From positions 4,713,280 to 4,777,279 of the forward strand of contig NC_057754.1 in NCBI RefSeq assembly GCF_004010195.1: a DNA stretch of 64,000 nt, read 5' to 3'. Made by a program: the position numbers and the translations under genes. Every line of letters begins with the position of its first letter. Position 1 is the stretch's first letter. The DNA comes from Chiloscyllium plagiosum (taxonomy: Eukaryota). Below, piece by piece: positions 284-55,665 of the stretch. The notes beneath the pieces are model-generated. The model was not told the origin of the DNA, made no database searches, and was given only the letters and a program-made list of their open reading frames with translations.

Positions 284-534
284 ATAAAAACTGCAAGAGC
301 TGTGAATGCTGGAAATCAGAAACAAGAACAGAAATTGCTGAAAAAGCTCTGCAGGCCTGGCAGAATCTGTGGAGAGAACTCAATGTTTCGGTCCAGTGAC
401 CCTTCCTCAGAATCAAAAGACAGCCATGTGGTTCTGAGGAAGGGTCACTGGACTCCAAAGCGTAACTCTGGTTTCTCTTGAGGATGCTGCCAGACCGGCT
501 GAGCTTTTTCCAGCAATTTCTGTTTTTGTTTGTG
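284..534. mobile_element. Fold-back Penelope pLTR-derived short element with two opposed hammerhead-like motifs
   Basis: Inverted arms at about 320-412 and 432-531 with a short spacer. Flanking direct repeat GCAATGTAATACTTC (269-283) / GCAATAAAATACTTC (535-549). Each arm has CTGAGGA-A-GGGTC-ACTG-GAC. Confidence 0.75.
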
Positions 535-769
535 GCAATAAAATACTTCTATTTGCAGTGTGTAAATTTAAGACAGTGTGATTTGAAAGACATTTAATTG
601 CTGATGTTCTGTCTGGCCCCAGAATTGGGGACCATTTATCGCTCATGCTTGGAAGGTTCCAATGGGCTCATGCATTTAGTGGCGCCCTTGAAATCTGAGC
701 TGTAAGAATACTTTTTGCCTCCGAAGAAACCTGCAGAATATAATACAATGAATGAAATTCGTCTTTCCA

Positions 770-1180
770 CTCACCAGTGCCCGGTGCATGCTCCAAATAG
801 TGCAGTTGACGATGAACTTAGAAGCAACAGTGGCTTTATGTTCCCCATCCATTCCTCGGCGATGGTCCAGGCGACGCCTTTCCCGCCAGAGTTTCGAGCC
901 GGGTCCACGTGCGGGAAGCGGTGGCGGTTAAAATAGGAAAACGGGCGCTAGGTAAAACAACAACAACAACAAAACCTCTGAAACAGAAGGGTGGGAATGT
1001 TGTATTTGGGGAGGACCAGTAAAAATATGAGGTAAAACACTCACCCATCCGTGAAAATATCCTCGAAATAACAAAAAGGAGGGGAAACCAGTTGTCGACG
1101 ACGATCCTTTCGACAATTTTGTCGCTGAAACAAAGCCGAACCCCTTCAATTTTTTTTTAAATGTATAGTTTAGGTGAGTT
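770..1180. promoter_or_regulatory. CpG-enriched candidate (possibly bidirectional) promoter / first-exon region
   Basis: Local CpG excess over depleted flanks. E2F-type TTTCCCGCC (879-887), E-box CACGTG (906-911) overlapping GCGGGAA (911-917). Consensus donors GTGAGT on the minus strand (774-769, 1044-1039) and plus strand (1174-1179). Confidence 0.5.
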
Positions 1181-2433
1181 TGTTGATGATTGAGACGTTT
1201 GATAGGATAAATGCTAAGTTGCCAGTAGCCTGGGGTTGAAAGCTTGGTTCAATTAAATGAAAGTTACATCTTATCCCCACCTCCAAAGTAATTTGTTTTC
1301 CAAAATAAAAACCTTAATTCACTCCTGGCAGGGGACAATTGCGCCCCCCCCCCCCCCATTATCTTATTCAAACGTTTAAGTGTTATTTTAAATCTCTTGC
1401 CCTCCCCCACAGAATGCAATGAAATTATATGTTAAACCTTTTTTCCCCTCCATTCACAGTCATGATGTCCAAAAATCAAGTTATCCCTTCTCTCCAGCGT
1501 GAAAGATCTAAGTGTTGCCCTTAACTTTGGTTTGGATAAAAGCTCTGAGCGGGCAGATTTCTGTCCTGGGCAACATCTTGTGGGATTGCCTGGCTGACCT
1601 GTCTGCCAACCTGGTTTCACACCCGGGTCTTATGAAAATGCTTTGGGTGCAGAGCTTGGCAAGAGCAAATGCTGATGGGGGCTTGTTGGCATTTTCTTCA
1701 CCAGACATAGGTGGGCCGGGTTGGTCTGGCAACAGAAACAAATGATTGGTCCTACCCTCTTTTTGAACCTTTGCAGCAAACTCCTGCACAGATCCCTTTG
1801 TGGACCTGTTTGTCAAATGCTTGGTACACCTTGGGGCAGTGCACCAAATGTTCAACAACTTGATGAGGCATCAAATTATACTGAGGTTTTTACAGAATTT
1901 CATTTTCAAAGCATTGACTTCATATGTAAGTTTGCGTAATGGTTCAAATTTGAACTATCCATAAGTCACAATACAATTTATTTCCATATAAAATACAGAT
2001 TCTGTGGCCTCTCACAGCACTTAGAATTACGTTTCATATTTATAATATGCATATTTATAAATTTATTCATTTGTGGGATGTGGACATCGCTGGCTGGCCA
2101 GCATTTATTATCTGCCCCTAGTTGCCCTTAAGAAGGTGGTTCTGAGCTGCCTTCTTGAACTGCTGATAAGGTTCCCCATGGTAGGCTCATTCAGAAAGTA
2201 AGGAAGCATGGGTTACAGGGTTATTTGGCTGTCTGGATACAGAATTGGCTGGCCCATAGAAGGCAGAGAGTAGTAGTAAATGGAAAATATTCAGCCTGCA
2301 GCTCGGTGACCAGTGGTGTTCCACACGGATCTGTGCCTCAGCACCTCTGCTGTTCTTGATTTTTATAAATGACTTGGATGAAGAAATGGAAGGGTAGGTT
2401 AGTATGTTTGCTGATGACATGAAGACTGATGGA

Positions 2434-2647
2434 TAAAAGCAAATTACTGCGGATACTGGATCTGAAACCAAAAGAGAAAATGCTGGAAAATCTCAGCAGG
2501 TCTGTAGGCAGAATCTGTAAGGAGAGAAAAGAGCTGACGTTTCGAGTCTAACTGACCCTTTGTCAAAGCAGCTTTTTTGTCAGCTCTTTTCTCTCCTTAC
2601 AGATGCTGCTAGACCTGCTGAGATTTTCCAGCATTTTCTCTTTTGGT
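2434..2647. mobile_element. Fold-back Penelope pLTR-derived element inserted in CR1
   Basis: Inverted arms at about 2466-2538 and 2579-2648. 14-bp TSD TGAAGACTGATGGA (2420-2433) / TGAAGATTGATGGA (2648-2661). Confidence 0.85.
2533..2569 (-). ncRNA. Minimal type-I hammerhead ribozyme motif, U3-A8 core variant
   Basis: Minus strand reads GCU UUGACAA A GGGUC AGUUA GACUC GAAAC GUC AGC. Helix I GCU/AGC, 5-bp helix II with one G-U pair, GUC triplet. Predicted cut between 2536 and 2535. Confidence 0.7.
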
Positions 2648-4705
2648 TGAAGATTGATGGAATTGTGGATAATATGGAGGGCTGTGGTAGGTTGCAATGA
2701 GACATTGACAGTATGCAGAACTGGGCTGATAAGTGGCAGATGACGTTCAACCTGGAAAAGTATGAAATAATTCATTTTGGAAGATTGCATTTGAATGGAG
2801 AATGCAGGGTTTAAGGCAGGATTCTTGGCAGTGTGGAGGAACAGAGGGATCTTGGAATCCATGTCCATATATCCCTCAAAGTTGCCACCCAAGCAGATAG
2901 TGTTTTCAGAAGGGATATGATGTGTTGGCTTTCATTAGCAGGGGAATTGAGTTTAAGAGCCGTGAGTTTATCCTACAAGTTTATCGAGCCCTGGTTAAAT
3001 CACACTTGAAATATTGTGTTCAGTCTGGTCGCCTCATTATAGGAAGGATGTTGAAGCTTTAGAGAGGGTGCAGAGGAGATTTAGCAGGATGCTGTCTGGA
3101 CTAGAGGGCATGTCTTATGAAGAAAGGCTGAGGGAGCTGAGGCTTTTCTCATTGGAGCAAAGAACGGTGAGAGGCGACTGGAAAGAGGTGTACAAGATGA
3201 TGAGAGATATAGATGGAGTGAATAGTCAGAGACTTTTTCTCAGGGCAGTAATGGCTATCACAAGGGGGCATAATTTTAAGGTGATTGGAGGAAGGTTGAG
3301 GGGAGATATCGGAGGTCTGTTCTTTACACAGAGAGTTGTGAGTTTGTGGAATGTATTGCCAGTGATGGTGGTAGAGTCAGATACATTAGGGACATTTAAG
3401 CAACTCTTGGATAGGCAATGGATGATAGTAAAATGAAGGCTATGTAGGTTGGTTTGATCTTAGAGTAGGATAAAAGGTCGGTACAAAATGAAATGCTGAA
3501 GGGCATGTACTGTGTTGTACTGTTTTATGTTCTATAAATGGGGAAAGAATTGAGAATGTACCACATATATGCATTGTTTGGAAATACGAAGTGAGTCCAA
3601 AAAAAAAATAGTTAAAAGATATATGAGCCAGTCTCTTTGGGTGGTTTGTGTTTTGGTTTTCATGCCCAGTCCCTTTAGAATCTGTGAAGCAGCATCATAT
3701 TTATAATCCTTTCCTGTTCTGCATCTGTTTCCTTATTCATTTCAGAGCTCCCCAGTCAACCTTTTCTGATTGAATTACATCCTTGCTGTAGTGAGGGCTG
3801 TAAAACTGCACACAGAATGACCAGTACAGCCTGATCAATGCTGAAAACAGTGGCAGGTAAATGTTCAACTCATACCTTCTTATTTATAACCTGACGTACT
3901 GTATGCTTTCTTTACAGCTACCAGACAGTGAGTATCCATATACACATGCACTTTCCAGCTGGAGTCACTGCGTAATTAGCAGGTGCCCATTGATGTTTCT
4001 TTCCATCCCCAAGTAAGGAACTGGAATGACAAAAGTAGTCCCATTAAGTGCTACCCTGACTAAAATAAACTTTCGCAGAGAATCCAGTCTGGAACCTTCA
4101 GGTCTGGATGGTTTAGTGCTAAAACAGTTGGTGTCCTGATCCATTAGCCTGACCGGAAAGCTCCCTACTTTAGTAGTTCCATGCAATGTTTGTGATGTTT
4201 CAATCCAAAAAAACTGGGTTAAATAGACCCCTTCTGTACTGTAATCTTCTGTTGTTCTGTGATGTATTTGCCAGTGAGATACTCACCCTGTCCACCACTG
4301 GCGCACAGTAACATTGCATTGTTACATATGAAGCATTCTTCATGTAATTGCTAGTGTCAGTTTTTTGATTTATTGAGTAAGTGCACCCACAGTTGGATAC
4401 TGATGATCGAGATCAGAAGAACCTATGTTTGTTGAATGGCTGACTTTCATCTGTATTTTCAGACAGCAAGTTGAGTAGCTGCACAGTGAAAATGCTGATA
4501 TGCATTTACTGGTCCTTCTCGGCCACATTTTGTATTTTGCCAGTCATCTTGAAGTAGGCACACAAAATTCCTGTCAGAGCCCCATCATCTATGGAAATGC
4601 TGGTTCTCTGATGCCAATAGGACATTGCTGCAAATTTGAAGCACCAATGGACAGAGTCAACCCTTCACACACCATACACATTTAAACTTGATGCATAGCA
4701 ATCTT

Positions 4706-4826
4706 AGGAGAAAAGTGAGGACTGCAGATGCTGGAGATCAGAGTCGAGAGTGTGGTGTTGGAAAAGCACAGCAGGTCAGGCAGCATCTGAGAAGCAGGAG
4801 AATCGACTTTTCCAGCACCATACTCT
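4706..4826. mobile_element. Short Penelope pLTR-derived element with small inverted end
   Basis: AGGAGAAAAGTGAGGACTGCAGATGCTGGAGATCAGAG...GCAGGAGAATCGAC, followed by the inverted CTTTTCCAGCACCATACTC. Same family as 34298-34400. Confidence 0.75.
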
Positions 4827-5359
4827 TGGCAGAGGAGTCTAACCCAGAAGTCTTCAAATGCACAGTTGCAGACTGCTCCAAAATGCTTTACTTATTTTAA
4901 AAAAATGTTGTTTTTAAACAATGTTCTTCCTGCCCCCCTTTCAAAAATCAATTGTCCCCTCCCCCCGTCCAACTTTCCACTACCCTCTGCTGACAGCATC
5001 TCCCCTTTTCTCTTAACCTACCTGTTCTGCTTGAGTCCATGGAGAATCAGTGATATGTAGACAGTGTATGGGGAACTCACTGATGAATTGAGGTTCAACC
5101 ATGAAAATAGTTTGGGTCTTTGGTGCCTTGTGTTGGTTGAGCTTGCTTTGTGATCTGATAGAAGTGGACATTTCAAAACATCAAAATCAACTTTTGATTA
5201 TAGAGCCTTTAAAGTAATAATAACTGTGATACCTAAAGGAATTCAGGGATGTTATAGGACAAAGTTTGACATGCAGTATTATTTAGTTAGATGACTAAAC
5301 GCTTGGTCGAATACCAAATTTTAATATATGCTGGCAAAAGGAGAGAAACAGATATATGT

Positions 5360-5871: not shown

Positions 5872-6070
5872 AATAAAAGCAAAGTACTGCAGATGCTGTA
5901 AATCTGAAAAAAAAACATAGTGCTGGTGAAACACAGCAGGTTTGGAAGTATCTAGAGAGAGAGAGAAGCAGAGTTAACGTTTTGAGTCAGCTGTGACTTA
6001 ACTGAACTGGGAACTTTGTTCCTCTTCCACAGAGGTTACCAGGCCTGCTGAGGTTGTCTAGCACTTTCTG
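5872..6070. mobile_element. Degenerate fold-back Penelope pLTR-derived element
   Basis: TACTGCAGATGCTGTAAATCTGAAA...GAGTTAACGTTTTGAGTC followed by the inverted arm AACTTTG...CCTGCTGAG..TCTAGCAC. Confidence 0.6.
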
Positions 6071-6414
6071 TAAATGACTGGTTTAAAACTAATGCTTTTT
6101 TTTGGAAACTATAAGCAATGTTCGCACCAAAGGGGCTGTGTGCCACTATTGATTGATTTTGCACTATTAATTATATTAATTTCCCATACTGTTCTACTTG
6201 GGTCAACTTCGAGTCAGAAAGATCTGCAGTAAGGAAAAAGGCCCTTTGGCCCGTCCCTTTCATGCTGGCCAAAAACAATCACCTAATTATTCTAATCCCA
6301 TATACTTAGCCCATAGCCACTTCTTATGCCTTGGCGTCACAATTGCACATCTAAGTACTTAAATGTTTTGAGGGTCTCTGCTTCTGTCAGCCTTGCAGGC
6401 ATCAGACTAATATA

Positions 6415-6551
6415 TGTCAAAACCGAAAAATCTGTGGATGCTGTAAATCAGAGACAAAAATAGAAATTGCTGGAAAAGCTTGGCGAGTTTGGCAGTATAT
6501 GAGGGGAGTAATCAGAGTTAACGTTTCGTGTCGATTGACTCTTCCTCAGAC
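6415..6551 (-). mobile_element. Penelope pLTR-derived element with hammerhead motif (about 6515-6551)
   Basis: Minus strand reads CUGAGGA A GAGUC AAUC GACAC GAAAC GUU AACUC. Core intact, one mismatch in helix II, helix I 5' strand truncated. Confidence 0.7.
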
Positions 6552-6779
6552 CTAACCAGACATGACCTGCTTAAATTGCAGTCCCCTTAATAAAAACAAC
6601 TTTTAAAAATGTAAATAAAAATGGATCTTGAACAGGCATAAGCATCACCAGTCTTTCACAATAAATCACCAATGTGACCTGTTGGGGCAAAGATATGCAA
6701 TTTGAAAAAGATTAGATGTAAGGTGTATGGGTGCAGGTGTGTTTAAAGTAGTGTTTTGTTTTTGCCCTACTTTGAGTCA

Positions 6780-9074: not shown

Positions 9075-9269
9075 CTAAAAGCAAAAAAATGCTGGAGATC
9101 ACAACAGGTCAGGCAGCATGAATAGAGAGAAAGCAAGCTAACATTTTGAGTCTAGATGACTCTTCATCAGAGCAAAGTGAAGTATGGAGGGGGCAGCAAT
9201 TATGCAACTGTTGGGTGGCCTTGGATTGCTGTTTTTGATTCAGATTCAGCATCTGCAGTAATTTGCTCT
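9075..9269. mobile_element. Penelope pLTR-derived element with partial inversion
   Basis: TSD TCACCTGAGCTA (9063-9074) / TCACCTCAGCTA (9270-9281). Inverted terminal piece GATTCAGCATCTGCAGTAATTTGC. Confidence 0.75.
9137..9173 (-). ncRNA. Decayed minimal hammerhead motif (C3-G8 core)
   Basis: Minus strand reads GCU CUGAUGA A GAGUC AUCUA GACUC AAAAU GUU AGC. Perfect 5-bp helix II and helix I GCU/AGC. GAAAC has decayed to AAAAU by two CpG-type transitions. Confidence 0.6.
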
Positions 9270-10539
9270 TCACCTCAGCTATTACCTGATTCATAGTGGA
9301 ATTTAGCTACGATTCTTATCAACAGTGTGTGTCTCTCGATGTCCAGTGTTTGATCTTTGTGCAGTATAGTTCTCTTGAGTTCTGCTGATGGAGAACCCTA
9401 AAGTTGAATTACAGGATTTTCTGCCTTGTGAAGTTTATGATGTGACGTTATTAATGATCCTTTAGATCCGTTCATCCCACGATTTTGACTGATTTCCATT
9501 TAGTTTGACCTGTTTTCAAATGTTTAATATCCTTGTCCCTTTTATGTCAGGAAACAGTTTATTCCAGAAAGAATTATTGCTAATTCATTCAATCCCTGAA
9601 CAATTATTAAAGTTCTGAAGTTTACAGTATCACAGTGGGTGTGTGTGATGTCAGCATACATGTGACTCCAAGACTCAATGATACCCTCCAGTCTAAAGGC
9701 CTGGATGACTCTTGTCAATTTGTGTGCTAAGTTGTAATTTTAAATGTTTTACATGTTGTGTAGTTCTTCATCCTGCATGTCACCCTCATTTAGTTTCTTC
9801 ACATTGTGGAGGCCAGAACAATTCAGCTGATGACAGTGTCCGCTGAGATTGTGGTGTCACCTCTTGCCCTTTTGGTAATGTGTTTGAGTTTCAAAAGACA
9901 TGCCATTCCTTACATTTTTTTGTTATCTCTTAACTCAGCTGAAACTATCGACATTAGTTCTTTAGAGGGAGAAAATATGGGAGCTCTTAATCAGAACTCA
10001 CATCATGTGAGTTAATTGACGCTTTCTGGATTATATCAGTTGATTTTAATGCTCTGCACCCTGGCATTCTTATATCATTGGCAGACTGAGAAAAATCAAA
10101 TGTAGTGGTGCTGATGCCAGTGGCTATACTGTAGATTCATTGTGAAAGGTTTCCATGTAGGTGGCTCTAGAGCAATGCTGTCTTTTCCAAAATGTATCCC
10201 TAGGGCTGGAATCTGTCAGGGAAAACTCGAATACTCTTTAGGATTGGCTCATGCTAGAGATAATCGATTGACAAAGCTTCATCACAACTTTGGCTTTTGT
10301 TTGAGTTTTGCCATTCTTTAGATCAATCCTTTGTTGCAGTAGTTGGTGGAAACTCTCCCTGCCGTCCCATGGGTTTTGACTAAATTTGACAGATTTCCTT
10401 TTAGTTAGACCTGTTTTCAAATGTTTAATGCATCTTTTACAGGATTGACTTTAGTCAGGTGTCAGTGTTGTTGGTCAAGAACAGATACTGGTTGTGTAAT
10501 TATGAACCTAGTTATCAGCATTCTTTTGACAGCTATTTC

Positions 10540-10593
10540 TGTGTCTCTCTCTCTCTCTTTCTCTCACCCACACACACACAAACACACACACAC
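10540..10593 (+). repeat. Compound (CT)n(CA)n microsatellite
   Basis: Directly visible. Confidence 0.9.
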
Positions 10594-12619: not shown

Positions 12620-12764
12620 GATTCTGTAGAACTGCTGTGGACAGCTCTTCCTAACAGCCAAGGCATACTGGTATTTTTTGCCATCCCTGGCTAACTTATG
12701 TGGTGGAATTATTAGTTTAAAACCTTACAGAACACATATTTGTTAATATTTGGGAGTGGGAAGG

Positions 12765-13355
12765 ATGCCAAAGGGAAAAGGAACAAGCAAACAGCAGCAG
12801 GGAGGACACTCCCCTGCAACACCTACGACACCAGAGACTGCAGCAGCAGCAGCCTCTCCTGACCCCCACCCCCCCTCCCCCGGACCTGACAGACTCACAG
12901 GAATTGGCTACGGCGCTGGAGAGACTTACCTTGAAAGTTGGGGCTGCGATTGAGGAGATCCGTGTGGAGATTCGTGCCCAGGTCCAACCTATTGCATCCA
13001 TACTGCAGAAGCATGAGCAGGAGATCCAGGGCCTCGGGGAGAGGCTAGAGGAGGTGGAGGGTCGAACTAAGGCCTCGGAAGCTGCAATGGAGTCCTCATC
13101 CAATCGAATCCAGGTGCTGGAGCAAGAGGTGCGGGCCTTGCAAGATCATTTCGACGACCTTGAAAATCGATGTTGGAGGATGTCTCCGAATTGTTGGGCT
13201 CCCTGAATGTGAGGAAAGTGAGCAGCCAGTCAGCTTCTTTGAAAACTGGCTGCCGAAGGTTTGGGGCCTTCACATTGAGTCTGGCAAGCTACAGATTGAA
13301 AGAGTTTATCAGGTTACAATGCACAGGTCAGGGCTGGTGCAGCCCCCCCCCCCAC

Positions 13356-13389
<34 letters not shown>

Positions 13390-13686
13390 CCTAGTGCACT
13401 TCCATTCATATAAGGACAAGCAAAAAGTCATAGAAGCTTCCAGATCTCTGGAAAAGATCCGCAGGCACTGCTGTGCTAGGGGTCAAAAATCATGTTTTTC
13501 CAGGATTTCTCTGCAGCTGTAATTCGAAAGAGGAAGTCCTTCGATGAAGTTAAAAAGAGGCTCAGGAACCTGGGCATCCAGTACTCCATGAGATACCCCG
13601 CAGTGCTCCATTTCAGCCACGAGGACTCAGTTTATAAATTTGACTCAGCGGATAAAGCTAAAAACTTTGTAGACACTTTAAAATAG
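12765..13686 (+). pseudogene. L1 ORF1p (coiled coil, RRM, CTD; Transposase_22-like), frameshifted
   Basis: ATG at 12765 (MPKGKGTSK). Heptad segment EQEIQGLGERLEEVEGR...DDLENR, then LRIVGLPE, IERVYQV, FFQDFSAAVIRKRKSF...YSMRYPAVL. Spread over several frames. Confidence 0.9.
13343..13386 (+). repeat. Poly-C tract inside L1 ORF1
   Basis: C11-ACT-C30 directly visible. Confidence 0.85.
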
Positions 13687-14276
13687 ACGGATTGGCCTGA
13701 AAAATATGGTTAATGTTTGTTCTGTTTTCTATCTTTCCTCATGTTTTCCCTTCCTTTCTTTTAAATTCCTTTCTTTCTCCCTAATAATTTCCTTTTTGGA
13801 AAGGGGGGAAAAGACCTTGGAATAAATTGTTCCTTTTTTTTAATAATTGGATTTTCTGATGGGAAATTTTGTGGATGTTCTTTGTTATCTCTCCTTTTTT
13901 TTGTTTCTTCTATTTCTCATTTAGTCACAAGTAGGGGTGACATGAAGCCAGGGATGGGTGGAGTGCTCATCCTGACTTGTTCTTTTTTCTGTTGATTTAA
14001 GGATCATCTTGTTTTTTTTCTGGCCTAAGGGCACAGTCTGAGTTTGAAGGAGCTGTGAAGGAGGGGATGGGTAGGGTGAGTGCCCTTTATGGGCAGGGGC
14101 AAGAGTCTTCCATTCAAGGTTTTATAGTTGTTTTTTTTTGTAGTTGTTTGGTAGTAATAGTTGTTCATAGTTATGATAGAGTAGTTTTTGTATATATAGT
14201 TCTTCGACTCTATGAGTCTTTATTTACTTATGCTCGGCGCTTTGTAAGCAGGGTTCAAGGGTGTCTGAAAGGGGAT

Positions 14277-17200
14277 GTGGCTAAGTGTCTTATTAAATGA
14301 TGCACCTGGAACATTAAGGGAAGTAATTCGCCTGTTAAAAGGAAAAAAGTGCTTTCTAGCCTTAAGAGGGAAAGGATTGATATTGCTTCGTTGCAGGAAA
14401 CCCATCTTGATGATGGGGAACACCTGAAATTACAACAGGGGGTTATGACTGGGTATTCTTTTCATCCTTTACTACTAAAAGTAGGGGAGTGGCGGTACTT
14501 ATCCAGAAACATCTTCTGTTCACATTATTAGAGCAGGTGAAAGATGAGCAGGGATGGTTTGTGATATTTAAAGCCCTGATACATGGGGAGGAATATGACA
14601 TTTTAAATGTCTACTGTCCTCCGGCGCATCCCCTCAAATTTTTGATTAGTACTTTCTCTAAGTTGAGTGCTTTTGGAACACGGCACATTATTGTAGGGGG
14701 GGATTTTGATTGTCTTTCGGATCGGACAGTGGACAGGATGCCTTGTGGGCCCCCAACTATTTCTTTGCAGGCCAAGCAGGTGGTTGACTTATGTGAGGAG
14801 TTGGGGATGGTGGATATTTGGAGATGTCTTCACCCTACTGGCAGGGACTTCACCTTTTTTTCAAACCCACATAAATGTCACATGAGGATTGACCTCTTTC
14901 TGGCTCCCTCGGCCCTTCTGGATTCGATTATGGGTTGTAAAATTGGGAATATAGCTATCTCTGATCATGCAGCAGTGTATTTGGAGGTTAAGACCAAGTG
15001 TGAGGGACTAAGTTTGCGGCACTGGCGTTTGGACTCTTTTCTCTTTAAGGATTCCAAATTTGTGGAATACTTTTTGAAGGAGTTTCAGGAATTCTTGACT
15101 ATCAACTCAGGCACGGCTAGTAGTCCATCTATGCTATGGGAGACTGCTAAGGCCTTTGCTAGGGGATTAGCTATTTCCTATTCGGCAAGCCGAAAATGAC
15201 AGAAGGAGGAACAGCAGCGTCTACTTGAGATGCGGTTGAAAGCCGCTGAGGCAGCACATATTGTGCGGCCTTCGGTGACTAAGCTACAGCGGATCACGGC
15301 CCTCTGGGCTGCCTTGAATTCAATACTGACACAAAACGCAAAGAAAGAACTTGCTTTTGCTAGACAAAGGCTGTTTGAATATGTGGATAGGCCAGGAAAG
15401 TATTTAGCATACCTGACTAGGAAAAAGCGTGCTCCCCAATCCATTACTGCAATCAGAGGCAGCGCTGGGGTCCTTACGTACGATGCTAAAAAGATTAATG
15501 AGGCTTTTCAGAGCTTTTTACTCTGAATTGTATTGGTCTGAAGGTTGCGAGGACAGGAGGGCTAAAATGGCGACCCTTTTTTAAGAATCTGGACCTCCCG
15601 GGGTAACCGTGGAACAGGCCTCTCTTCTAAATGCCCCCTTGACAGTTCAGGAAATACAGGAGGCAGCTAGGCAACTTCAGAGTGGGAAAGCGCCTGGCCC
15701 TGATGATCTTTCGGGTGAGTTTTATAAGGAGTTTATAGGGATTCTGTCCGGGCCGATGTTGGAGATGTACAATCACTCCTATATGCATGAATGCCTACCA
15801 CCATCTTTGAGACAAGCTAATATTTCCCAAATTCTTAAGAAGGGGGAGGTTCCTGAGCATTGTGCCTCATACAGGCCCATCTCTCTATTAAATTCAGATT
15901 TCAAGATTCTGTCCAAGATCCTGGCGCTGAGATTGGAAAGGGTTTTGCCCCATATTATTAAAGAGGACCAGACAGGTTTTATAAGGGGCTGTAGGTCCTC
16001 TAATAATATTAGAAGGTTGCTGAATATGGTCCAAGCTTGTCAGCAATGATCGCTTCAGAGTTTGGTGATTTCCTTAGATGCAGAGAAAGCATTTGACCGG
16101 GTGGAACGGCCATATCTTTTTTATGTCTTCGAACAGTTTGGGTTGGGTGGAGTCTTTGCAAGATGGGTAGAGGTTTTATTTCACCACCTTTTGGCCGCGG
16201 TCATCAACGGGGTGAAGTCTAGGAATTTTAGGATTGGTAGGGGTAGTCGGCAAGGCTGCCCCCTCTCACCGCTGTTGTTTACGTTGGTGATAGAGCCGCT
16301 AGCGGAAGCCATTTGTCAGAACGTCCACATAACCGCTCCGGAAGTGGGATTGAGGGCACACAAGATTGCACTGTATGTGTATGATGTCCTTCTGTTTTTA
16401 TCAAACCCGATGACCTCTGTACCCCATTTGATACAATGTATCAATTCATTTGGGGCTATTTCAGGATATAAGATTAACTTTGCAAAATCGGAGGCTGTGC
16501 CTTTGGGGAACCTTAAGGATGTATCCCAAGTTGAAGGTGGCCCTAAGTTCCCTTTTATGTGGTCATGGGCAGCATTCTGATACCTAGACATTTTTATTAC
16601 CCCCAAGTTTGATCTGTTATTTCAGATTAACTTTGCTCACTTGCTCGACAATATTAGACGAGATCTCCAGAGATGGGAGGCTCTTCCAGTTTTGTGGCTG
16701 GGCCGAATATCTCTCATTAAGATGAATGTTCTTCCTTGTTTGTTTTATTCCATGCATGTGCTCCCTATAATGTTTCCCAGGTCCACGCTGCGGAAACTTA
16801 TGGGGTGGTTTGGTTCCTTTGTCTGGCATCGTGGATGGCCCCTCATCAAACTTACTAAATTGCAGTTACCTCACGGAGGGGGAGGAGTTGATTTTCCAGA
16901 CATCAGGTGGTATCAATTGAGTTCCCCGTTGTCCTTTGTCTGTGATTGGGTAGGTAACGATCCAAATCAATATGGCTGGATATTGAGGCCTCCCAGGCAA
17001 AGTGCCCTCTTATTAACCTGTTGTTCATGGATAAGATGAGGACAGTTATGGACCATTGCCGGAACCACATTGTCATTAGTACAGTCAAGGTATGGAGGGT
17101 GATGCGTTAGAGTGAGGGTTGTTTATCTAAGACTTCGCCACTTACACCTATAGTTGGCATGCCAGGGTTCCGACCAGGGATGATGGACTCAGGGTTCAAA

Positions 17201-18064
17201 CTATGGGCAGCAAGAGGAGTTTCTAGTTTGGGAGACTTGTTTGAGGGGGAGGTTATGATGTCTTTTGAGCAACTGAGCCACAACTACGGGTTGCCCAGCA
17301 GAGATCTTTTCCGTTTTTTTCAGGTTAGGGATTTCATCCAGAAGAAGACTGTTTCTCACTAAGCCCTATAAGCCTGATACAGAGAGGATGTTGCTCCGTA
17401 CCACAAGCACCCTTTTGGTTAGTGCCCTCTATCGCCTGCTGGGTGGCAGGGCCTGGCAGGATATTAACTGGTTATGTGAGATCTAGGAGTGGAGATCTCT
17501 TCTGAAACATGGGAGAACATATGTGAGAATACTCGAAAGATCTCAATCTGTAATAGGACATGCGCTACGCAGTTAAAAGTTCTGCAGAGGGCTCATCTGG
17601 CACCAGACCGTCTGGCGAAGTTTAAAAAAGGGGCACCTTCAGTGTGCCCCAAATGTAAAATAAGTGTAGGTACTCTTACCCATTGCTTCTGGACATGCCA
17701 TAGGCTCCGTGTTTATTGGAGCCCTGTGGTGGGAGAGATAGGGAGGGTATTGAGGACTGAAGTCAAAGTAGACCCGATATCTCTCCTCCTAGGTCTACCG
17801 AATTTACCATCTTTAGATGGGCATGGGAAGAAACTGTTTAATATTCTTGCATACTGTGCACGGAAGAATATTCTGATGAGTTGGATGTCTGAGAACCCGC
17901 CGGGCTTGCTGGGATGGCAGAAATTAATTATGGAGCACATTCCCTTGGACTTTTTTACAAACATGGTGCACCACACAACAGACAATTTTTATAAGACATG
18001 GCAGCCCTACTTGAGTTATTTGGATATAGACTTGTCAGTTATCTTAACTAGGGTGTTTGTTTAA
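14277..18064 (+). pseudogene. L1 ORF2p (APE endonuclease, reverse transcriptase, CCHC knuckle), multiple stops and frameshifts
   Basis: EN motifs TWNIKG, LQETH, GGDF, RID, SDH. RT motifs KAPGPD, YRPISLLNSDFKILSKILA, LDAEKAFD, QGCPLSP and a degenerate YADD (LYVYD). C-terminal CPKC..GTLTHCFWTC. The start codon appears mutated to GTG. Confidence 0.93.
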
Positions 18065-22385: not shown

Positions 22386-22602
22386 AGGTAAACACAAGGA
22401 CTGCAGATGCTGGAAACCAGGGTCTAGATTAGAGTGGTGCTGGAAAAGCACAGCAGGTCAGGCAGCATCCAAGGAGCAGGAAAATTAACGTTTTGGGCAA
22501 AAGCCCTTCATCAGGAATAGAAGAGCTTTTGCCCGAAACGTCGATTTTCCTGCTCCTCGGATGCTGCCTGACCTGCTGTGCTTTTCCAGCACCACTCTAA
22601 TC
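22386..22602. mobile_element. Young fold-back Penelope pLTR-derived element
   Basis: Perfect 14-bp TSD ATGACATTTTAAGT (22372-22385 / 22603-22616). Inverted arms of about 83 bp. Minus-strand CUGAUGA A GGGC UUUU GCCC AAAAC GUU and plus-strand GCCC GAAAC GUC GAUU. Confidence 0.9.
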
Positions 22603-23394: not shown

Positions 23395-24075
23395 TACAAG
23401 GGGACTAGGGGGTCCTAGTTCAGAATTCTCTTCAGGGTAACACACAGATTCTATTGGCATTCAGGAAGGCAAATGCAATGTTAGCATTCATTGGGGGCTA
23501 GAATACAAGAGCAGAAATGTACTGCTGAGACTGTATAAGGCTGTGGTCAGATCTCATTTGAACATTGTGAGCAGTTTCAGGCCCCCTATCGAACAAAGGA
23601 TGTGTTGGCATTAGAGGGGCTACCAAGAGCTTTTTTTGGGGATGAAAGGCTTGTCATATGAGGAGTAGTTGAGGACTCTGGATCTGTACTCAGTAGAGTT
23701 TAGAAAAATGAGGAGGGAATCTGATTGAAGCTTACACTCTATCCAGGCCTGTCAGTATTCAGTATGTGGAGAAGATGTTTCCATCAATAGGACAGAATAG
23801 GACCTGAGGGTACAACTTAAGAGCGCACAGACAACCCTTTAGAACTGAGATGAGGAGGAATTTATTCAGCCACAGGGTAATTAATCTTTGAAACTCATTG
23901 CCGCCCGGACCTGTGGAGGCCGCGTCATTGAGGGTATTTAAGACATAGATCCATGAATGGTGAGGGGATCAAGGATTACATGGAGTTGAGAAACATATTA
24001 GCCATGATCGAATGACAGAACAGACTTGATGGGCCAAATGGCCTAATTCTGTTTCTCTATCTTATGGCCTTAGGT
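23395..24075 (+). mobile_element. CR1 LINE 3' fragment
   Basis: AGGAAGGCAAATGCAATGTTAGCATTCATT...CTGTATAAGGCTGTGGTCAGA. Tail GGGCCAAATGGCCTAATTCTG..CTTATGG. Confidence 0.85.
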
Positions 24076-34245: not shown

Positions 34246-34359
34246 AAGAAAGTACACCCATGAGGTGGGAGTGTGTTGTGATTGTCAGTTAGAAATGGAG
34301 AGCTGAAAATGTGTTGCTGGAAAAGCGCAGAAGGTCAGGCAGCATCCAAGGAGCAGGAG

Positions 34360-34395
34360 AATCAACGTTTCGGGCATGAGCCCTTCTTCAGGAAT
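34360..34395 (-). ncRNA. Minimal type-I hammerhead ribozyme motif in the PLE terminal repeat
   Basis: Minus strand reads AUUC CUGAAGA A GGGC UCAU GCCC GAAAC GUU GAUU. Intact core, perfect 4-bp helix II, weak helix I. Same strand as the PLE ORF. Predicted cut between 34364 and 34363. Confidence 0.7.
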
Positions 34396-34504
34396 GAGGA
34401 AAGTGTGCCAAGCAGGCTAAGATAAAAGGTAGGGAGGAGGGACTCTGGGCAGGGGCGTTGGAAATGCGATAGGTGGAAGGAGGTTAAGGTGAGGGTGATA
34501 GGCC

Positions 34505-34822
34505 NNNNNNNNNNNNNNNNNNNNNNNNNNNNNNNNNNNNNNNNNNNNNNNNNNNNNNNNNNNNNNNNNNNNNNNNNNNNNNNNNNNNNNNNNNNNNNNN
34601 NNNNNNNNNNNNNNNNNNNNNNNNNNNNNNNNNNNNNNNNNNNNNNNNNNNNNNNNNNNNNNNNNNNNNNNNNNNNNNNNNNNNNNNNNNNNNNNNNNNN
34701 NNNNNNNNNNNNNNNNNNNNNNNNNNNNNNNNNNNNNNNNNNNNNNNNNNNNNNNNNNNNNNNNNNNNNNNNNNNNNNNNNNNNNNNNNNNNNNNNNNNN
34801 NNNNNNNNNNNNNNNNNNNNNN
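34505..34822. other. Assembly gap (318 N)
   Basis: Run of N. Confidence 1.
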
Positions 34823-35257
34823 CGGGAGTGGAGGTTGGGTTGGTGGGGGGTGTGGACCTGACGAGGGAGTCACGGAGGGAGTGGTCTTTTTGGAATGCTG
34901 ATAGGGGAGGGGAGGGAAATATATCCCTGGTGGTGGGGTCCGTTTGGAGGTGGCGGAAATAACGACGGATGATACGATGTATATGGAGGTTGGTGGGGTG
35001 GTAGGTGAGGACCAGTGGGGTTCTGTCCTGGTGGCGATTGGAGGGGTGGGGCTCAAGGGCGAAGGAGCGGGAAGTGGAGGAGATGCAGTGGAGAGCATCG
35101 TCAACCACGTCTGAGGGGAAATTGCGGTCTTTGAAGAAGGAGGCCATCTGGGTTGTACGGTATTATGCAGGTCCATTTAAGGGTTACACAGTGAGCTTCA
35201 AAGTTGAATGACAGCAAGTGACAAACACTGGATTTTTGTTTGGGAATTTCATATAGG

Positions 35258-36349: not shown

Positions 36350-36540
36350 ACTTCTATAAGGTAGAAGCTTCCGACGCTCCATGGAAAATAGCCCTAGCCT
36401 ATTCAGGTTCTTCCTGTAGCTCAAATCCTCCCACCCTGGCAACATCCTTGTAAATCTTTTCTGAACCCTTTCAAGTTTCGCAACATCTTTCGTATATCAG
36501 GGAGACCAGAATTGAATGCAGTATTCCAAAAATGGCCTAG
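36350..36540 (-). mobile_element. CR1 internal fragment
   Basis: Reverse complement encodes RPFLEYCIQFWSP*YTKDVAKLERVQKRFTRMLPG. Confidence 0.75.
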
Positions 36541-36564
36541 GGATGGGCAATAAATGCTGGCCAG

Positions 36565-36696
36565 GTAAAAACAAGGACTGCAGATGCTGGAAACCAGAGT
36601 CTAGTTTAGAGTGGTGCTGGAAAAGCATAGCAGGTCAGGCAGCATCGGAGGACCAGGAAAATCAACGTTTCGGACAAAAGCCCTTCATCATGAATA
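36565..36696 (-). mobile_element. Penelope pLTR-derived element inserted in a SINE/LINE tail
   Basis: TSD-like GCTGGCCAG (36556-36564) / GCGGGCCAG (36697-36705). Minus strand AUGAUGA A GGGC UUUU GUCC GAAAC GUU, with C3 mutated. Confidence 0.8.
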
Positions 36697-37087
36697 GCGG
36701 GCCAGCTAGTGATGCCCACATCCTACAATTGAATATAAAAATAATCTACCATTCTTATATGGTCTGACCTACATGTAGCTTCAGACTCACGTCACTGCAA
36801 TTGAGGCTTTACTGCCTTTAGCAATGGCCTAGCAAGCCACTTAGTTCAAGCATCATTAGAGATGGACAACAATTTTTCTTGCTCGCAATGTCCACATCCA
36901 ATGAAAGAAAATAAAAGAGAATTGAGTTCTTCCCTAGTAGGGGTTGGCTTTGGACAGGAAAGACGTGGTGGAAATTGATGTTTGCACTGTGTAGTAGATT
37001 TACATTAAACCCTTGATAAAAGCCATTTGCTATCTAATTCATCAAATGGATATCAGTGTGTGAGTCAGTGATGTTCTGTATTTCTGT

Positions 37088-37435
37088 TTGGGCTCAGTGG
37101 TTAGCATGGCTGCCTCACAGCACCAGGGACCCGGGTTTGTTTCCAGCCTCGAGTCATTGTGTGAAGTTTGCACATTCTGCCTGTATCTGCGTGGGTTTCC
37201 TCTGGGTGCTCTGGTTTCCTGCCATAATCCAAAGACGTGCAGGTTAGGTAAATTGGCCATGCTGAATTGCACATAGTGTTCAGGGATGTGTAGGTTAGGT
37301 GCATTAATCAGGGATAAATATTGGATAATAGGGAAAGGAGTGGGCCTGTGTGGGTTACTCTTCGGAGCGTCAGTGTGGACTTGTTAGGTCAAAGAGCCTG
37401 TTTCCACACTGCAGGGATTCTATTCTATTCTATAC
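37088..37435 (+). mobile_element. HE1-type V-SINE
   Basis: GGCTCAGTGGTTAGCA.., V-domain, and tail GGGATTCTATTCTATTCTAT. Confidence 0.88.
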
Positions 37436-39891: not shown

Positions 39892-39985
39892 TCAGTTCTA
39901 ATGAACGATCTTAATCTGAAATGTTAACTCTGTTTTTCTCCCCAAAGACTGATTGACTGAGTTTTTCCAGCGCTTTATTTCACTT
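39892..39985 (+). mobile_element. Old Penelope pLTR derivative with decayed hammerhead
   Basis: AGTT CTAATGA..GAAAT GTT AACT (helix I AGUU/AACU), followed by CTGAGTTTTTCCAGC. Confidence 0.55.
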
Positions 39986-41697: not shown

Positions 41698-42030
41698 ATT
41701 AGAATCCCTACCATGTGGAAACAGGCCCTTTGGCCCAGCAAGTCCACACCGACCCTCCGAAGAGTAACCCACCCAGGCCTATTCCCTTACACTATTATTC
41801 TACATTTCCCTTGACTAATACACCTAACCTACACACCCCTGAACACTATGGACAAATCACCTAACCTACACATCTTTGGACTGTGGGAAGAAACCAGAGC
41901 ACCCAAAGGAAACCCACACAGACACAGGGAGAATGTCCAAGCTCAACGTAGACAGTTACCTGAGGCTGGAATCAAACCCAGGTTCCTAGTACTATGAGGC
42001 AGCAGTGCTAATCACTGAGCCACCATACCA
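41698..42030 (-). mobile_element. HE1-type V-SINE
   Basis: Reverse complement of the copies at 25190 and 37088. Confidence 0.88.
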
Positions 42031-43055: not shown

Positions 43056-43156
43056 TAGTTATGAAGAAGAATCACTGGACTTGAGACATTAACTCTGCTT
43101 TCTCTCCAAAGATGCTGCCAGACCTACTGAGTTTTTCCAGCAATCTTTGTTTTTGT
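43056..43156 (+). mobile_element. Penelope pLTR derivative with decayed hammerhead
   Basis: TSD TTCATTAAATG (43045-43055 / 43157-43167). AGTT ATGAAGA..GAGAC ATT AACT. Confidence 0.7.
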
Positions 43157-46700: not shown

Positions 46701-47359
46701 GTTTCTGTGATTCACTCATACCATGCCTCTGATTTATATTCAGCATTCAGACAGTGTTTTAAAGAAGAGAGTTTGGGATGTTCATTGCCTTTTTGTGAAA
46801 CCGTGTTTACTGGTTTTACAGTTCATGGCCGAGTGCTGATTTTAAGATTACATCCCTTTGTTCTGACCTTTTCTCCCACCAGAGAAGATGATTTCTCTGT
46901 ATTAGTCTGTTAAATCCCATTATCATATCAGAAACCTTGGTTAGATCACTGGTCAACTTATCAAACCTGAAGGACTATAAACCAAGAATTACTTTTAAAA
47001 TTTCCCTTGAAAATTACAGAAAATAAATGTTAAGATAGATAGGCAGAGGACAGCTGATGTTTATAAGTAAATGTCCTTAATACTGTAAAATCACTGTCTG
47101 AATATGTAAGTGTTGATGGACAAGAGTTCAAACCTACTAAATTATACATGCGCTACTTTGAAAACGTATTAAAATAGAAAGACATCTGTTAGATAATCAC
47201 TAGGTACAATGGAAAGCATTGTATCTCCATGTTGTGACAGGTCAAATTATTTTGTAATTTATTCCAGTTTTAGTATATATGTAAAAAATAAATGAAAATA
47301 CCATGCACACTCCAGATGATTCAATTCTGAGGGTCTCAGATGAGATTGATTTATATGCA

Positions 47360-47704
47360 TAGAATCCCTGCAGTATGGAAACAAGCCATTTGGCCCAAAA
47401 AGTCCACACAGACCCTCTAAAGAGTATCTCACCCAGACCCATTCCTCTATTATTCTACATTTCCCCTGACTAATGCACCTAACCTGTAGGTCTCTGAATA
47501 TTACAGGCAATTTAGCTTGGCCAGTTCACCTAACTTGCCCATCTTTGGATTATGGGAGGAAACCGGTGCACATGGAGGAAACGCACGCAGACACGGGGAG
47601 AATGTGCAAACTCCATGCAGACGGCCACCCGAGGCTGGAAACAAACTTGGGCCCCTGGCGCTGTGAGGCAGCAGTGCAAACTACTGAGGAACCATGCTGC
47701 CCCT
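47360..47704 (-). mobile_element. HE1-type V-SINE
   Basis: Reverse-complement V-domain GGAAACGCACGCAGACACGGGGAGAATGTGCAAACTCCA. Confidence 0.88.
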
Positions 47705-52440: not shown

Positions 52441-52563
52441 CAAACCTGATGAAGGAGCAGTGCTCAAAAAGCTTGTGATTTCAAATAAACCTGTTGGACA
52501 ATAGCCTGGTGTCATGTGACTTCTGACTTTGTCCACCCTAGTCCAACACTGGCACCTCCACAT
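52441..52563 (+). mobile_element. Terminal repeat of a different PLE family with decayed hammerhead
   Basis: AC CTGATGA A GGAGC AGT GCTC(A) AAAAG CTT GT, i.e. an AGCU-palindrome helix III type. Followed by AATAAA (52484-52489) and CCTGTTGGAC. Confidence 0.6.
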
Positions 52564-52955
52564 TTCAAAATTATGGACATCTCGAACCATTCAAACCACT
52601 GCATTGAGTTTAAGAAGCTTTGAGTGTCATTCAAGATTTGCACGAATGAATTAATTCCAATAAAAGGCAAGCTTAGAGATCTACTACTGAAAATCTAAGG
52701 CTGCTTATTGTTTAGGAGGTGCCTTATAATGAAATAAAAGTTGATAAATGGACAAATTAATGATTTATTCTGCTATCATTCGAGATGGATCAGAACTGCT
52801 GAAATGCAATTGCTTTTCAGATTACAAAATCCAAGAGTTGTGATTAACTTCATCAAGTTCTCCTATTAGTTTCAGAGTATTAATGGACAAGGAGACACAA
52901 AATTTTGAGGTACAACATGACCTTGCAATTACAAGCATTCAATGTTGAGACTTGT

Positions 52956-53048
52956 GTCGAGAGTGTAGTGCTGGAAAAGCACAGCAGATCAGGCAGCATC
53001 CCAGGAGCAGGAGAATCGACGTTTCGGGCATAAGCTCTTCATCAGGCA
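52956..53048 (-). mobile_element. Penelope pLTR-derived element
   Basis: Perfect 12-bp TSD GTTGAGACTTGT (52944-52955 / 53049-53060). Confidence 0.88.
53014..53046 (-). ncRNA. Minimal hammerhead motif with canonical core
   Basis: Minus strand reads C CUGAUGA A GAGC UUAU GCCC GAAAC GUC GAUU. One mismatch in helix II; helix I largely lost. Confidence 0.6.
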
Positions 53049-54269
53049 GTTGAGACTTGTACAGGTTGCGGTCGTGCAGGATAACCTTGTGGTTACAAGT
53101 GTACTAGTCTGAAGCTTGACATGAATTGCCAAAGGAAATTTGTTGTGACAAGTCCTTGATCTAACCTATGTGACATAAAGGCTGTTGGCAACTAGAGATC
53201 AGATGCTGTATTACAGCCCAGGAGGTAAAATCAGCAAGCTAGCCATGTTTCTGTGTGACTGGTTAGAGAGTGGATTTGCTATAGGGCTGAAGCAAGGCAC
53301 GAGCCAGGGTCTGGTCTTTAGCAACTGAGAAAAAAAGTACTATAATGAGATTTTTTCAGAAAAATTAATATATATTGTCTTGGTGAAGAATAAATAATGC
53401 TGCAAATAAGTATAAAGTAAAAGCTAGTGCCACCTGCTAAGCAGATCATTTTCCATTCTGCCGTACACTTTGCAGTGTGACAGCCGCTTAAGATGCACAG
53501 TGTACATTTTCTTCCTCTCATAATTCTTCCTAACCTCTGTTCAGTTTTACATTATTTCTTTGTTCTGCTTATGCAGTGCGGTTACTCAGCTTATTTAATG
53601 CATTGATGCCTATGTTCTCACAATGACAAAGAACACATTTCAGCATCTTGCTTTCTCATGCAATGAATTTGTCACCATGTAAAATGCCTTCAACAGCAGA
53701 TACAGATATGTAACGAGCAGTTGTTCACCCTAGTGTTGCACAGTTCAAAATTAGGTGTCAATATAAAACCCAGGTTTCAGACTGATGCAATCTATAATAG
53801 AAATGTGTATTTCTTCACTCTTCGCCTAAATGGAGTACAGTATGAAAGTTCCATATCCTTTCCTGAACCCAATTATTTAGTTTTTTTTTGTCACTAGATT
53901 GTGAACTTTTCTTTTTGTATAGTAATGATACTTTTTATTTGTATTTACTAATGTGTTGATTAAAGTAGAAGTGTGTGAATCTAAATAAAAGCGCCATTGT
54001 TTGTTGTTTGGAAGCAGTTAGTGAGGCTGTTAAGTTTATGACATTTGCCATTCTATTTGTGCTGTATTTTAGCTGAAATACCTGTATATTGCTTAAAGAC
54101 AAAATATATGTTAATTTAGGGATACATACTCTACTGTTTGATGTTTAAAAATTACCTAGGAAGAATCTTTATTTGAGAGAAAGAATATTTAAAATGTTGA
54201 AATCAGTTATAATGGTGTACTTCCATACTTCACTTGTGGATTTAGATTTGACTGGTGCATGAAATCAAT

Positions 54270-54630
54270 GTATTTCAACAGTACCTTGTATTTATGCAGT
54301 TTTTTATGTTGTAAAATGTTTGAAGGTACTTCACAGGAGCTTTACGGAACAAAGTTTGATATTGGCTCATACTACATGTTAGTTTGAAAGTTGGCTAAAG
54401 TGTTAAATTTAAAGGAGTGATTTGTAAAAGGAGAGAAAAGTGGAGATGTTGAGGGAGAGAATTCCACAGCTTGGACCCCAGGCCATCAAAGGCATGTGGT
54501 AGAGCGAGCAAAATCGGAGATGCTTAGGAGGCCAAGGTTGGTGAAGCTCAGGGACTTTAAGGGGATCACAAGGCTGAAGAGAGAAAAGAAAGAGAAGAGG
54601 GAGGCTTTGGAATGAATTATAAACCAAGAA
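54270..54630 (-). mobile_element. Old L2-type LINE 3' end
   Basis: CAACAG..CTTGTATTTATGCAG tail reverse complement, then GGGAGAGAATTCCACAGCTTGGACCC. Homologous to 5360-5540. Confidence 0.55.
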
Positions 54631-54889
54631 GAACTGTGGTTCTGGTCAAGATCCAGATATCTCATGAACTCTAATTCAGTGAGTAAGTAGATCATGTACA
54701 GAACCTGCTCAGAATTTGATGCAAAGCCTTGCACTTAGCCCTAGTGCACTGAATCACATCTTGTTGCAGAGTGATCACAGGTGAACTGTGACAAGCTTTC
54801 TTCTTATTTCCCTTGCTCCATTCAGGTAAGAAATTGTACCTCTGCATGAAGTTTGGTGTCAGGAAATCAAACTTGAGGGAATTGAAGCT

Positions 54890-55665
54890 GTGGTAGTAAA
54901 AAAGGCATATGGCATGCTTGCCTTCATTGGAAGGGGCATTGAGTATAAAGATAGGCAAGTTATGCTGCAGCTTTATAGAACTGTAGGTAGGCCATACTTG
55001 GAATATAGCATACAGTTTTGGTCACCACTCTACTAGAAGGATATAGATGTTTTGGAGAGGTACAGAAAAGGTTTACCAGGATGTTGCCTGGTCTGGGGAT
55101 TTTAGCAACGAAGAAAGGTTGGATAGACTGGGTTTGTTTTTGCTGGAACGCAAGATGTTGGGGGTGACTTGAATGAAGTTTATAAGATTGCGAATGGCGT
55201 GGATAGAATGGAAAGTATGAGGCTTGTGGGTGCAGGGCTTATGCTTGAAATGTCGATCCTTCTGCTCCTCGGATGCTGTCTGAACTGCTGTGCCTTTCCA
55301 GCACCACGCTCTTTGACTCTGATCTCCAGCATCTGCAGTCCTCACTTTCTCCCAGGGCGGAGGGGTCAATTATTAGGTTCAAGGTGCCAGGGGTGAGTTT
55401 AAAAAAGATGTATGAGGCACGTTTTTCACACAAAGGGTGGTGAGTGCCTGGAATGCATTGTCAGAGGAAGTAATGGAAGCAGACACAATAGCAGCATTCA
55501 AGAAGCACCTGGATGAATACATGAATAGGAAGGGAATAGAGGGATACCGATCCTGTAAGTGAAGACGGTTTTAGTATGGAAGGGCAAAATGTGTTGGCGC
55601 AGGCTTGGAGGGCAGAAGGACCTGTTATTCCTGTGCTGAATCGTTCTATGTCCTTTGTTCTGTGA
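54890..55665 (+). mobile_element. CR1 LINE 3' fragment with a nested PLE derivative (about 55232-55351)
   Basis: AAGGCATATGGCATGCTTGCCTTCATTGG..GGCCATACTTGGAATAT..AGGTTTACCAGGATGTTGCCTGG. Nested GGGCTTATGCTTGAAATGTCGAT..CAGCATCTGCAGTCCTCACTTTCTCC. Confidence 0.85.

Follow-up and report, generated by a model that had tools for sequence, protein, structure and literature searches.

Minimal hammerhead ribozymes were described in 2014 in the repeats of Penelope-like elements (PLEs), at thousands per genome, mostly as solitary motifs with some opposite-strand pairs (Cervera and De la Pena 2014, PMC4209133). Here, we describe a dense population of short repeats carrying this motif in one stretch of the Chiloscyllium plagiosum genome (64,000 nt, hereafter the window; RefSeq assembly GCF_004010195.1, contig NC_057754.1, positions 4,713,280 to 4,777,279, forward strand). 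The motifs share with those of the 2014 report the lack of a true helix III, a palindrome (15.2-16.2 in that report), an additional base that separates positions 9 and 10.1, a G10.1-C11.1 pair, a short helix I, the presence in one genome of several consensus families, and a predominance of single motifs with opposite-strand pairs; such motifs are known in fish Neptune and Poseidon elements. In contrast to that report, the accessible text of which does not name sharks, helix II is 4-5 bp here and the motifs are denser (5 strict motifs per 64 kb vs about 4,000 in coelacanth and 9,000 in Xenopus per genome), and their 5′ ends are clustered, a trait undescribed there.

Three further systems are close. 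Insertions of endonuclease-positive Neptune PLEs (Craig et al. 2021, PMC8557442) likewise show strong 5′ truncation, an adjacent inverted 5′-truncated copy, and an optional 30-40 bp tail at one end, and the elements encode a Cys-rich linker before the GIY-YIG domain; in the window, however, nearly all insertions comprise the last 95-135 nt only, and the inversion point lies at the ribozyme. With a second system, the Poseidon element PAc of anole (Frangieh et al. 2024, PMC11167929), the repeats share a tail defined by two internal start sites. Copying of uncleaved RNA, the main substrate of PAc and the template proposed below for the window, is a further point in common, as is the lack of RNA ends at the cut site in public reads. 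PAc is a Poseidon rather than a Neptune element, and its open reading frame (ORF) starts in helix II, whereas no such long frame is evident here. Lastly, non-autonomous elements derived from PLE pseudo-long terminal repeats (pLTRs) were published for vertebrates in 2026 (10.64898/2026.07.22.740005). These non-LTR retrozymes (Li et al. 2026; PMC7229834) are similarly short, non-coding, pLTR-related, and dispersed as monomers with a type-I hammerhead, although theirs are head-to-tail units with a complete ribozyme each, and none occurs in the window.

A repeat profile built from 18 copies in the window matched 23 segments at E ≤0.002, and no segments of the reversed window, used as a control, matched at this threshold. 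With one copy unrelated to the profile (at 52441), this amounts to 24 motif-region segments at 19 loci, or one locus per 3,368 bases; weak matches at 4592, 40529, and 55978 (E 0.09-0.6) were excluded from all counts. These figures agree with an earlier sequence-only reading of the window, which had put the repeats at about 18, of several families, and at one per 3-4 kb, and a copy is present at each of the 13 coordinates it named. Insertions are 95-250 bp in size and belong to five subfamilies, A-D and a single, different module (E, at 52441). Subfamilies A and B are about 81% alike, and A/B are 56-59% alike to C/D; identity within groups is 84% (A), 92% (B), 71% (C), and 70% (D). Rfam yielded no hammerhead family match in the window, and its microRNA (miRNA) and small nucleolar RNA matches were sub-threshold. 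The repeats are real, mostly decayed, and carry the known PLE minimal hammerhead motif. That such a population is largely unannotated, as had been supposed, is doubtful, given the abundance reported in 2014 and the PLE expansion reported for whale shark in 2018 (10.1101/443036).

A strict minimal-hammerhead scan of the window gave 5 matches, compared with a mean of 0.045 (maximum 1) in 200 shuffles. The minimal type-I core (CUGANGA ... GAAA ... UH) is present with the extra base ahead of helix II, and this base, the G-C closing pair, and the palindrome agree with the published minimal motif (PMC4209133). All invariant core bases are intact in 5 of the 24 segments (284, 6415, 24767, 34298, and 52956; the core of the first was read by hand, as MAFFT misplaced this copy in the alignment) and partially so in the others. 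Core, perfect helix II, and ACGU palindrome occur together only in the copy at 34298 (34360-34395, minus strand; C3 at 34391, G12 at 34371, predicted cut after 34364), the sole fully intact minimal type-I hammerhead in the window. G12 forms part of a CpG site in subfamilies A-D and is the commonest loss (6 of 18 aligned rows). The palindrome, at 15.1-16.1, replaces helix III; it reads ACGU in 8 of 17 rows and mostly as UG or CA variants (CpG decay) in the rest, with AGCU in the E copy. Hence, of what the sequence-only reading had claimed for the motif, the fold with a palindromic helix III stands, as does a helix II that varies between families with its pairing kept, whereas the core is not retained in most segments. 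Its GGAGC/GCUC family is represented by the copy at 52441 alone, which lacks relatives in the window and in which G12 is read as A. Two of the three test constructs it proposed are damaged (2533-2569, by C3>U and G8>A; 53014-53046, where helix II contains an A-C mismatch and helix I is down to 1 bp).

Covariation was measured on an 18-row alignment, the rows of which are related, so that the shuffle figures given here are not a probability. In helix II, 4 of 5 pairs showed two-sided change and 87% of cells were paired; in helix I, 2 of 4 pairs (U-A/C-G, both inner pairs) did so with 71% paired, and subfamilies A and B carry a U-U mismatch. Two-sided cells exceeded shuffles (16 vs 9.0; 0/500), but the number of two-sided pairs did not (7 vs 5.6; 131/500). 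RNAalifold recovered helix II alone. Because helices I and II covary between subfamilies, the source elements are likely to have carried and kept a true minimal type-I hammerhead fold. None of six ribozyme-sized stretches was significantly stable as a monomer (z −0.95 to +1.46). Two copies of 34356-34398 cofold through the palindrome at −21.5 kcal/mol, as against −7.9 kcal/mol per monomer, and a ribozyme-like dimer of the best copy is predicted at −9.9 kcal/mol. An unstable monomer and a weak ribozyme-like dimer would fit the low activity that motifs of this kind are reported to have, and it is likely that the predicted ribozyme works only in source elements, either as a weak dimer or when assisted by protein.

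The surroundings of the motif are those of retrotransposon insertions. Target-site duplications of 12-15 bp scoring ≥10 were found at 7 of the 19 loci, compared with 1 of 296 random position pairs, and the loci in question are therefore retro-insertions. Duplications called at 284, 5875, 6415, 9075, 26984, 36565, 55233, and 63583 are within chance range, and none was found at 4712, 34298, 39895, or 52441. Upstream flanks are unrelated between loci. At the 3′ side, copies end at one of two sites about 35 nt apart (tailed and short). Twelve loci are single-armed and seven have an inverted second arm; in all seven of these fold-backs, a tailed arm is paired with one that ends at the short site. 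The window holds four tandem repeats, none of the ribozyme module, and the subfamily A module runs on into the untranslated region (UTR) of a longer element at 34396-34504. Since this anatomy (duplications, tail, inverted copy, decayed cores, no tandems) is that of ordinary 5′-truncated PLE insertions (PMC8557442) and the A module continues into a long-element UTR, the proposal of a non-autonomous, ribozyme-bearing system is not supported in the form in which it was made.

Instead, we consider the repeats to be dead-on-arrival, 5′-truncated pLTR stubs of a PLE, written from uncleaved RNA by target-primed reverse transcription, a reading to which we assign a probability of roughly 75%. A Neptune-clade protein would nick the DNA and copy the element RNA, beginning at either of two sites downstream of the hammerhead. 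Because copies span the cut site, the template would be uncleaved RNA. Copying would usually halt at the upstream edge of the hammerhead, either through a stall of the enzyme at the ribozyme in its folded or protein-bound form, which we slightly prefer, or because the template RNA starts there. In some events, the new DNA may snap back, pairing through a mirrored helix I or helix II, and copy itself as far as the inner start site, which would generate the palindromes. After insertion, copies would decay neutrally. Cleavage products were also considered as templates and were rejected, as most copies span the cut site.

Downstream of the ribozyme, the module of subfamilies A-D (alignment columns 63-133) contains a putative double hairpin with an outer GAUGCUG/CAGCAUC stem and an inner UGCUG/CAGCA stem, placed so that the short 3′ end falls inside the loop of the outer stem and the long one comes after that stem. 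It is 86% paired, and as no pair changed on both sides (0 of 13), the structure is unproven. It is a candidate start signal for reverse transcription.

The clustered 5′ ends and the fold-back arms are the two most regular features of the population, and both had been missed by the sequence-only reading. The 5′ end lies −8 to +7 nt from C3 in all seven solo copies with a called duplication (four strong, three in the chance range), a cluster that precedes the cut site by about 30 nt and has a spread of about 15 nt. The long-element UTR is reached at only one of the 19 loci; at 9075, there is in addition an unassigned spacer of about 50 nt. While the insertion architecture is already published for PLEs, 5′ ends at the upstream edge of the ribozyme are the one unusual trait. 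We found no report of PLE 5′ ends clustering at the ribozyme in a literature search outside which lay Repbase, Dfam, most papers behind a subscription, and two sets of supplements (PMC4209133 and 10.64898/2026.07.22.740005) that may list shark motifs. The position of the cluster also bears on whether the repeats are non-LTR retrozymes, i.e., tandem units cut by their ribozymes, circularized, and re-inserted as monomers. The type-I hammerhead would suit this, as would the pLTR derivation of such elements, which are known in one cartilaginous fish and often occur as monomers (10.64898/2026.07.22.740005), and one joint that "goes back," in a single contig of public run X13, hints at rare tandem units elsewhere. 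Nonetheless, copies start not at the cut site but about 30 nt upstream, flanks upstream differ between loci, paired arms are on opposite strands, and there are no tandem ribozyme units in the window, so that the repeats fall outside the definition of a retrozyme. We regard this origin as very unlikely.

The source of the repeats is indicated by the longer copy at 34298. Its putative parts lie on the minus strand in the expected order: a downstream pLTR module of subfamily A with the short 3′ end (34298-34359), the intact hammerhead, a pyrimidine-rich 3′ UTR upstream of the ribozyme (34396-34504; single copy in the window, covered by reads to a depth similar to that of the coding fragment), and, beyond an assembly gap of 318 N (34505-34822), a PLE coding fragment (34823-35165) corresponding to the linker between the reverse transcriptase and the GIY-YIG endonuclease. 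The identity of this 113-aa fragment was taken from its homologs, since Pfam matched nothing on the fragment alone. There were 30 homologs at E ≤0.001, with a best identity of 85%, and identity to proteins of the carpet sharks Chiloscyllium punctatum and Rhincodon typus was 67-85%, which would point to a host resembling a bamboo shark; the homologs have RVT_1 and GIY-YIG matches, most of them scoring below the curated Pfam cut-offs, and a CxxxxCxxC linker. A Cys-rich linker marks Neptune and Nematis elements (PMC8557442), and Neptune is the clade reported for vertebrates (10.64898/2026.07.22.740005); from the linker motif, the fragment would be Neptune-type. The window contains the linker part only and no second such coding fragment. 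Penelope-like origin, as proposed in the sequence-only reading, is thus supported by the homologs, whereas the stated physical attachment of the ribozyme copy (34298-34400) to PLE coding sequence holds for strand but crosses 318 N that none of the listed public contigs bridges. Loose read ends at 34823 extend into the gap, where their sequence can be read as Cys-rich linker, and depth per bin in the public RNA run X21 is 117-207 over the UTR and about 60-100 over the ORF. No target-site duplication was found around this long insertion. It is likely that the ribozyme end is attached to the coding fragment, for subfamily A only. A metagenome scan for a coding relative gave 164 stretches, none confirmed and none providing an ungapped locus with ORF and ribozyme, and a second metagenome scan, for the ribozyme motif, gave no matches.

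Several points weigh against pLTR stubs left by target-primed reverse transcription. The coding link crosses an assembly gap and concerns subfamily A; the window offers no coding partner for subfamilies B-E. At 318 N, the gap also falls short of the ~470 nt that homolog P0004 encodes past this point; therefore, either its size is given incorrectly or the copy at 34298 has a deletion. In three segments (4712, the arm at 2579, and the piece at 9226), the start lies at the cut site or below it. The core of subfamily A differs from the majority at 2 of 49 non-CpG cells, vs 36 of 406 downstream, counts too small to speak for neutral decay or for selection. Public reads agree with the clustered 5′ ends: depth in X21, a poly(A) single-cell library, drops from 1,248 (34355-34395) to 207 (34396-34436) in bins 41 nt wide, with loose ends piled at 34386 (134 reads) and 34395 (136 reads), and contig runs X1 and X13, from two organisms, show the same step at 34395/34396. 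The step is, however, inflated by other subfamilies with different upstream sequence that are also clipped there (agreement among the loose ends at 34395 is 0.44, so the flanks are mixed), and summed contig depth is not copy number. Of the 15 joints listed, with 191 more outside the listing, two are opposite-strand and link 34393-34395 to 34349-34360 (2 and 5 contigs, X1).

A further point against truncated stubs is that the 5′ clustering is too sharp for random truncation, and a short dedicated template fits it equally well. This raises the possibility of SINE-like (short interspersed nuclear element-like) non-autonomous elements, in which solo pLTRs would produce a short RNA starting at the 5′ edge of helix I, mobilized in trans by an internally initiating PLE protein. 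The sharp boundary (within about 15 nt), the ratio of about 17 short loci per long one, and the several subfamilies of differing age (identity 70-92%) would all be expected of such elements; a Drosophila pLTR contains an internal promoter (PMC2377424), and internal starts of PLE reverse transcription are documented (PMC11167929). However, subfamily A is contiguous with the long-element UTR, the 5′ ends do vary over those 15 nt, and in D. virilis, the start is not at helix I but 46 nt ahead of an intron, the end of which meets helix I (PMC2377424, PMC4209133). In public RNA, 95 in 100 aligned X21 reads continue into unlike sequence, in both orientations, which fits read-through of host transcripts, and no pile of RNA starts or ends is listed, including at the cut site, in a library that is poor for 5′ ends and unsuited to show them. 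We therefore judge SINE-like elements unlikely and retain truncated pLTR stubs as the preferred reading.

For the fold-backs, a different route would be twin priming, in which RNAs dimerized via the palindromic helix III are copied by a dimeric protein that primes both target strands, one per start site, with both copies stalling at the dimer junction and being joined head to head. One long and one short arm at all seven fold-backs, junctions located at the ribozyme, and the strong palindrome cofold relative to the monomers would be accommodated by this scheme, and in anole, cutting and extension by the protein, a predicted dimer, take place on both strands (PMC11167929). On the other hand, the ribozyme-like form of the dimer is much weaker than that cofold, and a second arm is absent from 12 of 19 loci. 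The identity of arm to arm equals that to other subfamily copies (81/88 vs 79-80/88) and does not decide the matter. The opposite-strand joints described above fit snap-back directly: the joint 34360-34395 connects both strands of helix I, as would be expected if the new DNA primes itself through the mirror of helix I. Twin priming thus appears rather improbable, and we favor snap-back during the writing of pLTR stubs. Four fold-back loci fold as long stable hairpins (−132 to −165 kcal/mol), and with Rfam miRNA matches of up to E 3.6e-05, they might be mistaken for miRNA precursors or for DNA transposons resembling miniature inverted-repeat transposable elements. All Rfam matches are far below gathering scores, though, the outer arm ends are unequal, most loci are single-armed, and the duplications vary in length (12-15 bp) in a manner that fits retro-insertion; the anatomy largely refutes this origin, and we give it next to no credence.

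The role of the hammerhead in PLEs has been called unclear (PMC8557442), and cleavage is not needed for PLE insertion in vitro (PMC11167929). As a bolder and doubtful proposal, the hammerhead of shark Neptune elements may be less a cutter than a fixed boundary of retrotransposition, through a short RNA or a hard enzyme stop at the 5′ edge of helix I; it would then have given of the order of a million tiny insertions headed by the ribozyme, and fold-back hairpins formed via ribozyme helices or a ribozyme-linked RNA dimer would make up a third of these. If true, this would give the PLE hammerhead a non-catalytic function and the genome among the largest hammerhead-motif populations of any. The number follows from genome size: the genome measures about 4 Gb, and if the window is typical, it would hold about a million loci, mostly inactive. 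Dense, duplication-bounded copies record both the start and stop points of reverse transcription, and shark assemblies could show whether stop and inversion point are both determined by the fold of the ribozyme. In annotation work, the palindromes yield false miRNA matches and dead motifs inflate ribozyme counts.

The seven fold-back loci are as follows. At 284-535 (subfamily C), a tailed copy (284-418, minus) is followed by an inverted short arm (426-535, plus), with 79/92 identical positions between arms and an 8-bp candidate duplication in the chance range. The subfamily D locus at 2434-2647 has a mutated core (C3>U, G8>A), arms identical at 68/70 positions, and a 14-bp duplication with one mismatch. 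In subfamily B, 22386-22602 pairs a tailed copy (minus; G12>A) with an inverted short arm (81/88 identical) inside a perfect 14-bp duplication, and in subfamily A, both arms of 30632-30832 start within the ribozyme (69/72 identical; perfect 15-bp duplication). The subfamily A copy at 4712-4832 (minus) is tailed, starts at about G12, and has a short inverted piece. An old fold-back of subfamily C/D occupies 5875-6076, and 9075-9290 comprises a subfamily D copy (9075-9177, minus; G12>A), the spacer, and an inverted tail piece (9226-9290, plus).

Strong duplications flank four solo copies: 24767-24861 (plus; subfamily C, starting at C3, short 3′ end; 12 bp, one mismatch), 29448-29546 (minus; subfamily A, G5>U and G12>A, short 3′ end; 12 bp, perfect), 43060-43156 (plus; subfamily C, C3>A and A14>G, short 3′ end; 15 bp, one mismatch), and 52956-53048 (minus; subfamily A, intact core, A-C mismatch in helix II, reduced helix I; 12 bp, perfect). 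Tailed solo copies lie at 6415-6556 (minus; subfamily C, intact core, mismatches in helices I and II), 26984-27106 (minus; subfamily A, starting inside the core; 9-bp candidate duplication, one mismatch), 36565-36696 (minus; subfamily B, C3>A; 9-bp candidate, one mismatch), and 55233-55352 (plus; subfamily A, starting at the helix II bulge; 6-bp candidate overlapping the 5′ end). The copy at 36565 is inserted within another repeat (36536-36710) that also occurs at 34193, 41587, and 50033, and public contigs join the ribozyme module to a repeat of this type near 34225, a possible preferred target. An old solo copy of subfamily C (39893-39985, plus; G5>A; E 1.8e-07) and a heavily decayed copy (63575-63650, plus; E 0.0017) complete the profile matches. 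Module E (52441-52566, plus) is a single copy with a hammerhead-like head, for which the motif points to PLE origin; its downstream part is unrelated to A-D and folds into a long stem, and it is likely to represent a different PLE family.

Other repeats are also present in the window. A broken long element on the plus strand (12721-18064) has a coiled-coil ORF piece, an Exo_endo_phos_2 endonuclease, and RVT_1 fragments, and its naming as LINE-1-like (long interspersed nuclear element) is inferred from this layout. Repeated LINE fragments, presumably of CR1/L2 type, lie at 2999-3436, 23639-23922, 27831-27913, 30011-30246, and 61500-63026 (RVT_1 match at 61878-62327). A SINE-like repeat of ~300 nt, which we take to resemble the shark HE1 SINE, occurs in both orientations at 25185-25536, 37096-37423, 41700-42026, 47359-47702, and 56679-56990. 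Finally, a 183-aa open frame at 60577-61128 (minus) with an ALKBH8_N match (E 4e-09) is probably the end of a LINE ORF.

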